A stretch of 64,000 nt of DNA from Styela clava (Eukaryota): NCBI RefSeq assembly GCF_964204865.1, contig NC_135261.1, positions 10,664,001 to 10,728,000 on the forward strand, read 5' to 3'. Positions 282 through 62,270 of this stretch are shown here, piece by piece. The position numbers and the translations under genes were made by a program. Positions within the stretch are counted from its first letter, which is position 1. Every line of letters starts with the position of its first letter. Below the pieces are notes generated by a model. It was not told where the DNA came from. It ran no database searches and saw only the letters and a program-made list of their open reading frames with translations.

Positions 282-2937
282 TTATATACATCTGACATAT
301 CTGAAGCATCCGTCATACTTGACAATGCGGTAGGATTTGTACGTGCTGAAATAGGATTATGTTAAGCAGGAAAAACTCTGATTCAATTCAATTACAAAAC
401 TAACTAAGACTTACCAGAATTGCTTGTAAGCAAAGCAATAAGAAGAAGACGTGGGCAACACGCATCGATAATTATAGGTGATCTTAAGTTCTCGAAGTTG
501 CACACAGTATGTACATTTGAATCCACAAGCATAATGCTCCTTCAGATCACTGAGATGTTTCCCCCAGTCTTGTTCAATCTTGGTCACTATGTCGGTGTTT
601 TCTTTCTTCGTTTTCTCTTCGTAGGCGTTGTACAATTTTTGAGCTTCGTTGCCGAGTGGTTTGCCCATATAAAATTCAAGCAGTTTCAAATACTGTTCTG
701 TTCTGAGTTGGGCAATCTAAACATTTTTGCAAGAATTATATAAATATAAATTCATATTTTAAACAAAATGTCACGCTGTCAACCTTTTCCAATCTCTCTG
801 TAATGCATTTCAGTCTTCTTTCAAACCGTTCCGATAAGCACTTTACGTAGCTTTCGATCTTTGTCTTTCTGGTAGATAGGCATGTTGCATATTGTGCAAC
901 ATATTTGGCAATTCGCTCATTGAACCTTTGCTCGTGGCAACCAATCATGTCAGTGTATGCCTTGGAAGCGCGAGAAAGGCGCTCCCCAAGCTTTTTTTCA
1001 TACTCTGCAATCGCTTTTTTCTTTTGTTCGTCCAATGATTTCTGATATTCTTCTAGGGAAGTCAAGTTATCTGCTGTGATGCAATTGTTTCTAGAAATAT
1101 AAAGAGCAACTGAGCCAAATGTCATCTTATGATATACTTATTCACCGTGACACTTACTGTACTAAGTAATTTGCTTTATAATACGTTATCAAACATTTGT
1201 GTCTCTCATCAACAATCTTTTTGAAAGACTCCAATGCCTTCTGATTAGTTATTTTTGCTTGCGCATACCAATCATCATATGTTTTCTTCATGGATTCAAT
1301 TATTGTCTTAGCTTTATTATCAAGGTCTTCTTTGAATTTTTGTTCGGTGATATTAACTTCATCTTAAGTGTAATAAAAACATTAAATTCAGTGAAACATA
1401 AAGACAATTGAGCAAACGTTTTAGGACTTGCACTAACCGGTTACACATTTTTTCAGCTCCTTGTATTTGATTGTCCTGTATTGAAATTTGTAGGTCAAGA
1501 AACGGAAGCAACTTCTTTGGGTAGTAATTTTGTACGTCCACCATTTCCCGATACTTCGACTATAAAGAAAAAACCAAGAGTAGAATTATATTGATATATA
1601 CTATTTACCTGCCATTTATTTATAATTACCAATTGGTGTAAAATTGACTTCTGCCAAAACAGAGAGTTCCGCCGTATGCGCACTGATAAGCGCATGCGTA
1701 GCTTTTTACAAGTTCTCCGATAGCTGCAGTTAGCTTCGCGGTGTATTCGTCCAACTGTGTTTGATATGATTGAGTTTCTTTAGTTTTGAAAGCCTCCAAA
1801 ACTGCATTAACGTCTGCTCCGTTCCAATCCTCAGAACCTAGATGTAAAGTTCCATTGTGAATAAAATTATGTTCAAAATTCGAAAGAAAAGAAAAAACTT
1901 ACAATGGGCTCTGTATATCAGTTTTTGGAACACTTGAGATCTCTGTTTTACGATGGCTTCCATGACACATTTATATTTTGTCTCGTACTCTGTCACGCGC
2001 TTTTCGAGAGCTTTTTTGTATTCTTCTATTTTAGCTAAACGAGTGGTGAAGCATGTAACAGACCTGGAATAAGAAAGGTTCGAATTTTAGTTCTCTTGTA
2101 AACGAACTTTTAAACTTACAGTAACTCACCTCTCGACAAGTTTTTCGTGATATTCCAGCACACAAGCGTATCTTTTCTTCATGTCATCGTTATAATTTTT
2201 TTTTGCTTCTTCCAACAAAGAATCTAGTTTTGTATTATAATTTTCAATAGCCTTCTTGTTGGTCTGCTTCATTTCTTCTGACTCTTCCTGCAATCCCGTA
2301 ATTCTAAAAATTCACGATGTTAGTAATTTGAGTAAGAAAAGAATACGTAAGAAAGAATTGTAAGAAGAAATACAAACTTCAAATACTGCTTTGTATATTC
2401 CTCGATAGCGTCTTCGTGCTTTGTCTTTGCCTCGGTATTTTGATTTGTTGCAGTTTCAACCCAATCTTCATATTTTTGTTGCATATCAAGATCTATTTTA
2501 TCGGCCACTTCTTTCAATTGTTTTTTAACTTCAGTTTCAAAAACGGCGACCGTCATCTCTATAATACAAAAATTCATGCCTCAAAATGTGTGTTTCTCAA
2601 ATTATTCAGAAAAACTTATCAAGATACAATTCAGAATTACCTTCGAATCCATCCTCTGTGCATTTCTCTCCTGGATAGCTCTTCAGAACATTAGAGTAAT
2701 ATTTCGTTGTGAACCAAGCAGGACAGTAGTAGCTTCGGAAACTGTAGCATCCGTAATTTATTCGGTAAAATTGTCCGACATTGTAAGTAACATATCCGCA
2801 ATGACTCGGTTGGTATAGAGCGGCATTGGCAACCTGTAAACATTATAATTTAGGTAAAATTGATAAAAAGAAACGAAGGGCACTATTTATCAAATACTTA
2901 CGGCCAAACAGCCTAGAAGTAACAATAGAATCTTCAT
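282..2937 (-). CDS. Secreted, internally duplicated helical/coiled-coil Cys/Tyr-rich protein, 650 aa, 11 exons (copy 1). Exons: 2937-2902, 2833-2641, 2558-2378, 2303-2130, 2063-1903, 1837-1630, 1559-1438, 1362-1158, 1090-784, 716-415, 345-282
   Basis: All 10 introns are GT..AG, 65-82 nt, with compatible phases. Exons sum to 1953 nt with no internal stop. Starts MKILLLLLGCLA|VANA-ALYQPSHC (signal peptide-like) and ends DGCFRYVRCI*. AATAAA lies ~106 nt after the stop. Confidence 0.9.
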
Positions 2938-3473
2938 GATCGTCTTTATTCAGGTTGTTGAACAACGACTTGTCGAATCCCTGTTGTGCGCTTGTAGATA
3001 TAGGATTTCTTCCCTCTCTTCAAAATCCAAGTACCAGCTCCTTTATGTTTTAATGTTACTTTAGTGAGCTCTTATCTCGACCACAATGATTGAAATTGTC
3101 AGAAGCGCAACAAATGTTTACCTCGAATCGCTATGCCGTAGTTATAACAGAAAGTTCAGTTTATTTCATTTAAATCTTCCATCATTGTGCATTTAGTAAA
3201 AAGGTAATTGTTAATTAATCTTTTTATTGTGAAGTACATTATTTTTCAACTAATAAGATACCACTTCGACATAGCTATTCACTTCATCAGTACGCATTGT
3301 TTATATAAATATAACTTCAGGGTTGAAGATAGTTAGTCAATAGCTATTACATCCAATTGAACAGCATTACTAAAAAAATAGAAGTTTTTCAACAACACCT
3401 TATTTTTATTATTCACTCTTTGGTATACGCATACAATTGTTTTAACAGCAAAATGTACGACTTTTGAATCATA

Positions 3474-59613: not shown

Positions 59614-62270
59614 TTATATACATCTGACATATCTGAAGCCTCCGTCATACTTGACAATGCGGTAGGATTTGTACGTGCTGAAATAGGATTATGTTAAACA
59701 GGAAAAACTCTGATTCAATTCAATTACAAAACTAACTAAGACTTACCAGAATTGCTTGTAAGCAAAGCAATAAGAAGAAGACGTGGGCAACACGCATCCA
59801 TAATTATAGGTGATCTTAAGTTCTCGAAGTTGCACACAGTATGTACATTTGAATCCACAAGCATAATGCTCCTTCAGATCACTGAGATGTTTCCCCCAGT
59901 CTTGTTCAATCTTGGTTACTATGTCGGTGTGTTCTTTCTTCGTTTTCTCTTCGTAGGCGTTGTACAATTTTTGAGCTTCGTTGCCGAGTGGTTTGCCCAT
60001 ATAAAATTCAAGTAGTTTCAAATACTGTTCCGTTCTGAGTTGGGCAATCTAAACATTTTTGCAAGAATTATATAAATATAAATACATATTTTAAACAAAA
60101 TTTCACACTGTCAACCTTTTCCAATCTCTCTGTAATGCATTTCAGTCTTCTTTCAAACCGTTCCGATAAGCACTTTACGTAGCTTTCGATCTTTGTCTTT
60201 CTGGTAGATAGGCATGTTGCATATTGTGCAACATATTTGGCAATTCGCTCATTGAGCCTTTGCTCGTGGCAACCAATCATGTCAGTGTATGCCTTGGAAG
60301 CGCGAGAAAGGCGCTCCCCAAGCTTTTTTTCATACTCTGCAATCGCTTTTTTCTTTTGTTCGTCCAATGATTTCTGATATTCTTCTAGTGAAGTCAAGTT
60401 ATCTGCTGTGATGCAATTGTTTCTAGAAATATAAAGAGCAACTGAGCCAAATGTCATCTTATGATATACTTATTCACCGTGACACTTACTGTACTAAGTA
60501 ATTTGCTTTATAATACGTTATTAAACATTTGTGTCTCTCATCAACAATCTTTTTGAAAGACTCCAATGCCTTCTGATTAGTTATTTTTGCTTGCGCATAC
60601 CAATCATCATATGTTTTCTTCATGGATTCAATTATTGTCTTAGCTTTATTATCAAGGTCTTCTTTGAATTTTTGTTCGGTGATATTAACTTCATCTTAAG
60701 TGTAATAAAAACATTAAATTCAGTGAAACATAAAGACAACTGAGCAAACATTTTAGGACTTGCACTAACCGGTTTCACATTTTTTCAGCTCCTTGTATTT
60801 GATTGTCCTGTATTGGAATTTGTAGGTCAAGAAACGGAAGCAACTTCTTTGGGTGGTAATTTTGTACGTCCACCATTTCCCGATACTTCGACTATAAAGA
60901 AAAAACCAAGAGTAGAATTATATTGATATATACAATGTACCTGCCATTTATTTATAATTACCAATTGGTGTAAAATTGACTTCTGCCAAAACAGAGAGTT
61001 CCGCCGTATGCGCACTGATAAGCGCATGCGTAGCTTTTTACAAGTTCTCCGATAGCTGCAGTTAGCTTCGCGGTGTATTCGTCCAACTGTGTTTGATATG
61101 ATTGAGTTTCTTTAGTTTTGAAAGCCTCCAAAACTGCATTAACGTCTGCTCCGTTCCAATCCTCAGAACCTAAATGTAAAGTTCCATTGTGAATAAAAGT
61201 ATGTGCAAAATTCGAAAGAATAGAAAAAACTTACAATGGGCTCTGTATATGAGTTTTTGGAACACTTCAGATCTCTGTTTTACGATGGCTTCCATGACAC
61301 ATTTATATTTTGTTTCGTACTCTGTCACGCGCTTTTCGAGAGCTTTTTTGTATTCTTCCATTTTAGCTAAACGAGTGGTGAAGCATGTAACAGACCTGAA
61401 ATAAGAAAGGTTCGAATTTTTTGTTCTCTTGTTAACGGACATTTAAACTTACAGTAACCCACCTCTCGACAAGTTTTTCGTGATATTCCAGCACACAAGC
61501 GTATCTTTTCTTCATGTCATCGTTATAATTTTTTTTTGCCTCTTCCAACAATGAATCTAGTTTTGTATTATAATTTTCAATAGCCTTCTTGTTGGTCTCC
61601 TTCATTTCTTCTGACTCTTCCTGCAATCCCGTAATTCTAAAAATTCACGATGTTAGTAATTTGAGTAAGAAAAGAATACGTAAGAAAAAATTGTAAGAAG
61701 AAATACAAACTTCAAATACTGCTTTGTATATTCCTCGATAGCGTCTTCGTGCTTTGTCTTTGCCTCGGTATTTTGATTTGTTGCAGTTTCAACCCAATCA
61801 TCATATTTTTGTTGCATATCAAGATATATTTTATCGGCCACTTCTTTCATTTGTTTTTTAACTTCAGTTTCAAAAACGGCGACCGTCATCTCTATAATAC
61901 AAAAATTCATGCCTCAAAATGTGTGTTTCTCAAATTATTCAGAAAAACATATTAAGATACAATTCAGAATTACCTTCGAATCCATCCTCTGTGCATTTCT
62001 CTCCTGGATAGCTCTTCAGAACATTAGAGTAATATTTCGTTGTGAACCAAGCAGGACAGTAGTAGCTTTGGAAACTGTAGCATCCGTAATTGATTCGGTA
62101 AAATTGTCCGACATTGTAAGTAACATATCCGCAATGACTCGGTTGGTATAGAGCGGCATTGGCAACCTGTAAACATTATAATTTAGGCAAAATTGATAAA
62201 AAGAAACGAAGGGCACTATTTATCAAATACTTACGGCCAAACAGCCTAGAAGTAACAATAAAATCTTCAT
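59614..62270 (-). CDS. Same 11-exon secreted helical Cys-rich protein, copy 8 (mosaic, last in array)
   Basis: Colinear, frame intact; 3' exons share variants with copy 3 (YGC, KKCET), and part of exon 5 shares variants with copies 4-7. Confidence 0.87.

Follow-up and report, generated by a model that had tools for sequence, protein, structure and literature searches.

A tandemly amplified gene of Styela clava related to the ascidian endostyle-specific Ends1/Ends2 family and encoding a predicted rod-forming secreted protein

Results

The 64-kb window analysed here, that is, the whole stretch of Styela clava DNA between positions 10,664,001 and 10,728,000 of contig NC_135261.1, is a tandem array of ~8.0-8.1-kb units that are 95-99% identical, each containing one minus-strand gene (Table 1). 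All eight gene copies comprise 11 coding exons (1953 nt) that encode 650 aa and finish with one terminal stop, the ATG being the upper coordinate of each copy in Table 1. Their introns, ten per copy and 65-82 nt long, are bounded by GT..AG in 80 of 80 cases, with the donor of intron 9 in the gene model taken from transcript contigs. This agrees with the original prediction, made from the sequence alone, of at least eight intact spliced copies. The same prediction considered the gene to be hidden by micro-introns, which is not so, because the introns are ordinary short ones and RefSeq models match copies 2 and 7 at 650/650 residues. Indeed, exon 9 matches S. clava RefSeq proteins named 'uncharacterized', the two exact matches belonging to a cluster of 25, and the window gene is thus already annotated, but without a name.

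The window holds the last eight of 14 copies of an array located at C16:10.61-10.73 Mb (114 kb). Unit 8 is the edge of this array, since no unit match was found in the next 20 kb searched beyond copy 8. Unit 8 ceases to resemble the other units ~1.7 kb upstream of its ATG (window 63954-64000), where the flank is more diverged. When the S. clava genome was searched with exon 9, 42 matches appeared in four arrays (42 counts exon-9 matches, and frames were checked for the eight window copies). An inverted sister array lies 650 kb away (C16:11.378-11.497 Mb) and contributes 11 matches with 92-93% identity on exon 9, in units of ~10.3-11.9 kb with one 19.9-kb gap; the two C16 arrays are ~95% identical over the gene and differ in unit length. 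In total, 25 of the 42 matches show 92-100% identity. The C3 array (C3:18.75-18.82 Mb; 7 matches, 10.6-kb units) and the C17 array (C17:7.27-7.39 Mb; 10 matches, 12.1-kb units) share 35-38% identity on exon 9 and look like diverged paralogues, each homogenised separately. The four arrays are independent amplifications in one genome.

Are these copies maintained by selection? Coding indels amount to 0, compared with at least 19 in the non-coding DNA of the same units (expected ~6, P ~0.002), in line with the intact frames and decaying passenger DNA noticed originally. Divergence is 1.0% in coding sequence versus 1.5-1.7% in spacer and introns. The mean proportion of nonsynonymous differences (pN) is 0.0078 versus 0.025 for synonymous ones (pS) over 28 non-independent copy pairs, so that pN/pS is ~0.31. 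Because of these three results, we conclude that selection keeps the reading frame. The array could also be one or two genes multiplied by a faulty assembly, given that the RefSeq models are not independent of the window assembly and that copies 4-7, nearly identical to one another, differ by just 0-0.8% at synonymous and intron sites. However, synonymous differences among the remaining copy pairs are 1.6-4.3%, are distributed as a patchwork and come with private indels; a transposon sits in 3 of the 14 units; and replacement sites are spared by the substitutions, unlike what read errors would produce. An artefact is therefore hardly credible.

To which family does the gene belong? A phmmer search with protein P0002 against 1.84 billion representative proteins gave 26 matches, 20 of which were looked up, including S. 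clava paralogues, Clavelina lepadiformis, Ciona savignyi, a C. intestinalis fragment and marine environmental proteins. Full-length Clavelina and C. savignyi members were matched at E 3e-58 to 2e-52 and C. intestinalis P0026 at E 4e-15, while P0041, a weak match to a short repeat protein, was excluded from every alignment. Word-index protein searches, even with alignment, returned only S. clava-like sequences, and the relatives were reached by exhaustive search. The link to a named family comes from quantitative PCR primers for 'Endostyle-specific gene 1' (AB010895.1, Ci-Ends1) given in PMC7347631. P0026 contains both Ci-Ends1 primer peptides, exact and at the published 210-bp spacing (score 78/78), and aligns with copy 2 at 28% identity over 233 aa (pairwise E 1e-27). 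The primer peptides of AB010896 (Ends2), which appears as 'ENDS sp1' in the same paper, fit C. savignyi members at 49/68, and one such member is 26% identical to the window protein over its full length. The primer peptides given for Ends3 and 'sp2' find no fit in any member of the family. On the strength of the two Ci-Ends1 primer peptides in P0026, which stand here for AB010895, and of its alignment with copy 2, the window gene is, on sequence grounds, homologous to Ci-Ends1 and a member of the ascidian endostyle-specific Ends1/Ends2 family. Applied directly to the window protein, the primer test was marginal, since 7 of 300 shuffles scored equally well, a rival spacing tied and the match fell in the second repeat; the assignment does not use it.

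Family members are colinear over their full length of ~640-650 aa and have a common Cys pattern. The Ciona proteins resemble that of S. clava in length and Cys pattern, and likewise have a hydrophobic N-terminus and are built on two repeats. In a tree of 17 proteins (midpoint root; composition differs between them), the eight ascidian rows, which group Styela, Clavelina and Ciona members in species order, are separated from a clade of nine environmental sequences that, as a guess, might come from planktonic tunicates. Two environmental relatives, P0027 and P0029, have N-terminal Met/Gly/Lys/Ser-rich repeats ahead of the first rod that are not found in ascidian members. S. clava has 42 exon-9 matches, versus 3-4 C. 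savignyi proteins and 3 Clavelina RefSeq loci, these latter figures not being genome counts. Ci-Ends1/2 and HrEnds2 were reportedly described in the 1990s as secreted products of zone 6 of the endostyle; we take HrEnds2 of Halocynthia to be a related gene. The original prediction had recognised no known family. It is now a named one, though not functionally characterised in the accessible literature: an open-access search found nothing on function, structure or amplification of Ends1/2, and no family identifier was found in the accessible content of six supplement files of PMC12992692 and two of PMC6109156. The family was thus named and its genes modelled in RefSeq before; what is new here are the four arrays, the two-rod model and the array-specific transcript pattern.

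Transcripts were followed in six of 21 listed sequencing runs, five of them guessed to be RNA (X1, X2, X3, X11 and X12) and one DNA-like (X18). A single 2288-nt contig of X3 spans 10/10 junctions, which answers the junction check proposed originally; X1, X11 and X12 bridge 9/10, 10/10 and 9/10 respectively, some with offsets of 1-3 bases, and no junction was bridged among the matches listed for X18. By allele sorting, contigs of X1 and X3 correspond to window copies 4-7, whereas X2, X11 and X12 are of sister-array type. Summed contig depth on the gene, a rough and poor measure of amount, is ~5e5 in X2, ~4000-5700 in X11 and 14-21 in X1, X3 and X12. At four diagnostic sites of X2, ~95-98% of the depth is of sister-array type and ~0.3-1.5% of window type, the latter nonetheless at depths in the thousands. 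The window array is consequently transcribed and spliced, yet it is a minor contributor in X2, the deepest run examined. Of the dosage amplification of a bulk product first proposed, bulk output is indicated for the family as a whole by the X2 depth; for the window array itself such amplification is conjectural, since ~98% of that signal is of sister-array type. Such a pattern might also arise if the window array of this endostyle-derived family were now active elsewhere or at a different stage (in tunic, gonad, egg coat or larva) and the sister array served the endostyle. The window alleles in X1 and X3 at depth ~20, the sister-array type of the other three runs and the differing units of arrays so similar over the gene would fit this shift. 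On the other hand, X2 also contains window-type alleles in quantity, and copy number may vary between individuals. We regard the shift as improbable.

The predicted protein starts with a hydrophobic N-terminus, seen by inspection and common to the family, and has 56-58 Tyr and, with the putative signal peptide, 29 Cys per chain. The mature chain retains 28 Cys, or 27 for copy 8, matching the earlier hand count of about 28. It is built from an internal duplication of ~290 aa (BLAST E 4e-23; score 214, whereas 300 window-shuffled trials gave at most 95), whose halves align at HHalign 99.4% and share introns 2/7 and 3/8 in place and phase. The three Tyr/Cys-rich segments (N-terminal, middle and C-terminal), when cut out alone, show no profile similarity to one another. 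All three were first described as basic, which is right for the middle (+9) and C-terminal (+8) segments of copy 2 and wrong for the N-terminal one (17-79), which is net neutral. In copy 2 the middle and C-terminal segments contain 21-23% aromatic residues, and they are net positive in all full-length relatives. Zone 6 is described in the literature as an antimicrobial epithelium, and cationic aromatic segments of this kind could bind or kill microbes, or hold particles, with the rods as spacers. We doubt such a role in mucus defence or particle adhesion, given that the pN/pS ratio reflects homogenisation with purifying selection and no diversification, and that Pfam gave no match to a toxin, lectin or pore-former family.

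AlphaFold, run with a 22-row alignment, predicts six long helices, three in the first half (80-139, 145-248, 255-298) and three in the second (365-428, 433-546, 552-594), with a mean predicted local distance difference test (pLDDT) of 76.7, in agreement with the helical character first proposed. The predicted template modelling score (pTM) of 0.41 for the whole chain suggests that the halves are not fixed to each other in the model; a one-repeat environmental homologue has the same plan with pLDDT 79.2, pTM 0.64 and an ordered N-terminal segment. In each half, helix 1 is predicted to span ~60 aa, helix 2 104-114 aa and helix 3 ~43 aa, so that the first and third together equal the second (60+44 versus 104; 64+43 versus 114). 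From this coincidence and from conservation, we infer that each half doubles back into a 15-17 nm rod, with termini that would meet mid-rod near conserved Cys199 or Cys497. Eight Cys columns (Cys70/199/297/301 and Cys356/497/593/597) show 67-100% conservation among the covering rows, and the four of each half would lock the hairpin. The first rod is acidic in the C16 copies of S. clava and mostly basic in other ascidian members. The hydrophobic period is 3.65-3.76 residues in six of six helices, a hendecad (11-residue) pattern.

Checks for a known fold or domain gave nothing above threshold. Foldseek at E<=0.001 found no match for either model (window protein or one-repeat homologue), VIA-align of the full model against solved structures gave background-level hairpin matches only, and the ESM Atlas gave no usable match for P0004 or P0025. 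The winter-flounder hyperactive antifreeze 4ke2 (Z 8.8, root-mean-square deviation 4.0, 177 aligned) and YscO 3k29 (Z 9.1, root-mean-square deviation 7.1, 162 aligned) share hairpin geometry alone; at 7-12% identity and with scores at the background of helical models, no function can be transferred from such hairpins. Complex prediction with two copies of residues 40-350, run without alignment, gave no usable answer (score 0.00). Pfam hits of nine exons and P0002 were sub-threshold, including an ANG-1-like one at E 7e-4, and were rejected as weak helical matches.

Long 11-residue amphipathic helices that open onto lipid or hydrophobic particles of pharyngeal mucus, like those of apoA-I/A-IV, would make the protein a lipid binder or surfactant. 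Apolipoproteins A-I, A-IV and E are likewise secreted, with long amphipathic helices of ~11-residue periodicity; among the 22 aligned members, 12 have a Pfam Apolipoprotein match with E<=0.01, the best at 1.6e-12, the family profile puts apoA-I first in the PDB (E 1.8e-5) and family helices have a hydrophobic period of ~3.67. Nevertheless, the 90-bit cut-off of PF01442 is not attained (family best 48, window protein 21), 7 of 14 full scans are without match, the matches fall at shifting profile positions, and no apolipoprotein is among the fold-search matches listed. Exchangeable apolipoproteins consist of Pro-punctuated 22-residue repeats, whereas the two rods contain 0 and 1 Pro, and the window protein differs further by its conserved disulfide-type Cys, which suggest a locked hairpin, its Tyr-rich ends and its twice-repeated 290-aa unit. 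The resemblance is real, yet it stays below threshold and changes register, which is what shared periodicity is expected to produce, and we consider the apolipoprotein-like role unlikely.

Turning to the rest of each unit, an AATAAA signal is present 106 nt past the stop in 8/8 copies. A probable upstream non-coding exon lies ~1.2 kb upstream of the gene, and its donor is present in copies 1-7. A TATA-like motif 60-65 nt ahead of the ATG suggests, as a sequence feature, a nearer main transcription start. The 300 nt upstream of each ATG in copies 1-7 diverge by 0.5% versus 1.5% in spacer, which would suggest a constrained promoter or recent conversion. The pogo/Tigger-type transposon, first described as passenger DNA of the units, occurs in one of the eight window units, not in all; it is found at the same place in three non-adjacent units out of 14, unit 6 and two upstream of the window (L024:2892-5891, L025:3959-6958), which fits spread by unequal crossing-over. 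The window element is ~28 nt longer than the other two. The 'esterase-like exons' received no support from Pfam, and their sequence matches are confined to the window's array. As for the hAT passenger, a motif at 7136-7258 marks a putative hAT-like remnant, for which Pfam gave no match.

Table 1. Positions of genes and other features in the 64-kb window
Feature	Position	Strand	Remarks
Units 1-8 of tandem array (1..64000)	1-7973, 7974-16048, 16049-24124, 24125-32201, 32202-40267, 40268-51370, 51371-59332, 59333-end		Unit boundaries
Copy 1	282..2937	-	650 aa; frame and transcript junctions
Copy 1, coding exons 1-6	2937-2902, 2833-2641, 2558-2378, 2303-2130, 2063-1903, 1837-1630	-	
Copy 1, coding exons 7-11	1559-1438, 1362-1158, 1090-784, 716-415, 345-282	-	
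3′ untranslated region of copy 1	154..281	-	Poly(A) at ~154
Probable upstream non-coding exon	4272..4419 (far end approximate)	-	Spliced to 3040; single X3 contig
Dispersed repeat, passenger	6745..7600 (ends approximate)	+	Putative hAT-like C-terminal remnant at 7136-7258
Copy 2	8255..10910	-	Protein identical to RefSeq XP_077975077.1 (P0004)
Copy 3	16330..18985	-	Intact
Copy 4	24406..27054	-	Intact
Copy 5	32483..35131	-	Intact
Copy 6	40549..43197	-	Intact
pogo/Tigger-type DNA transposon	45432..48469	+	Unit 6; frame broken; terminal inverted repeats; TA flanks; DDE_1 E 6e-15
Copy 7	51652..54300	-	Protein identical to RefSeq XP_077974870.1 (P0011)
Copy 8	59614..62270	-	Frame intact; without Cys643; final array copy

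Discussion

What might the product of these arrays do? We favour, with moderate confidence, the view that the S. clava Ends1 homologue is secreted by gland cells of the endostyle and is a cross-linkable, rod-shaped component of the feeding mucus. In the mechanism we propose, helices 1 and 3 would fold back along helix 2 into a 15-17 nm rod with its ends mid-rod, where the four conserved Cys of each half would lock it. Acidic glycans or neighbouring molecules would be held by the basic Tyr/Cys-rich segments, for which disulfides or the peroxidase/Duox system of the adjoining endostyle zone could provide cross-links. Indeed, mucoprotein comes from endostyle zones 2, 4 and 6, with iodine and peroxidase located in zones 7-9 (PMC9324221), so that the neighbourhood of glandular and peroxidase zones offers a possible route to tyrosine cross-linking. 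Further background is found in PMC6109156, PMC12212465 and PMC12205476. Unequal crossing-over would have amplified the gene, and the copies would have been kept for output. Of the interpretation put forward originally, a predicted secreted, helical, Cys/Tyr-rich protein under selection in an amplified array stands, with a structural secretion as best guess; venom and yolk or egg-coat roles find no support.

The site of expression is suggested by published tables. In a list of 104 genes specific to the endostyle as an organ, a peptide that matches the C17 paralogue has Ciona KY.Chr12.60 as its partner, and this Ciona gene has a value of 1436 in one column and <0.14 in ten others (PMC9953650 supplement). 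The C17 paralogue also marks Stereo-seq cluster 8 of the endostyle, together with endoplasmic reticulum and ribosomal genes (PMC10980280).

Several observations weigh against this reading. The published tables concern the C17 paralogue and its Ciona partner, not the window copies. The column with 1436 is headed 'heart' in PMC9953650; as this conflicts with the paper's stated filter, we read the header as shifted and the organ as presumably the endostyle. In Supplementary Table S1 of that paper the headers do appear shifted, the endostyle-specific genes having a single large value for Ciona, which stands under 'heart'. The Styela value of the paralogue fragment is only 5.5 (PMC9953650), and cluster 8 is labelled 'Digestive cell A', with the paralogue detected in 10% of units (PMC10980280). 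The small share of window-type alleles in X2 points in the same direction. With regard to the protein, the Tyr/Cys-rich segments have pLDDT <50 in the window model, the Cys pairing is deduced from helix lengths and conservation, and there are 2 N-glycosylation sequons only, without a Pro/Thr/Ser-rich mucin tract. Finally, ascidian mucus has been reported to contain minuscule protein and no mucus-specific peptides, and an ordered mesh is doubted (bioRxiv 10.1101/2025.01.21.634085). That study, though, searched Ciona and Ascidiacea UniProt sets, from which the family diverges to ~26% identity. Accounts of the feeding mucus differ, a mesh of 10-40 nm fibres in one and a protein-poor gel in another.

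Other secreted products of the endostyle are known, namely vWF-like or mucin-type secretions and a ScTG-like protein (PMC12212465, PMC12992692), from which the window protein differs in having none of their VWD, cystine-knot, PTS and Tg1 domains by Pfam and sequence inspection. This bears on whether it could be a thyroglobulin-like iodination scaffold for thyroid hormone synthesis, as its abundant Tyr and its secretion beside iodine and peroxidase zones (PMC9324221) would allow. The hormone precursor of S. clava has been shown to be a different, Tg1-domain protein (PMC12992692; PMC13170672), and Pfam at E<=1 finds no Tg1 domain in the window protein, which makes the scaffold very improbable; incidental iodination of the protein may occur.

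A bolder extension of the mucus-component reading, which we put forward tentatively and consider rather less probable than not to be right in full, is that the feeding net of tunicates would have Ends1/2 as its main structural subunit. Paired hendecad rods of 15-17 nm, clamped by disulfides, would polymerise through Tyr/Cys-rich ends hardened by the peroxidase system of the endostyle, forming a new fibre class of sessile and probably planktonic tunicates, encoded by ~40 copies in S. clava.

In itself, the window protein is an ordinary family member. Its analysis ties an unnamed, strongly amplified gene set of S. clava to the named Ends1/2 family and reveals a sister clade in marine environmental records, and it supplies proteomics and expression work with candidate peptides and allele markers. 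For the composition of tunicate feeding mucus, on which published accounts differ, Ends1/2 represents a specific candidate, with a predicted architecture and definable Cys pairs.

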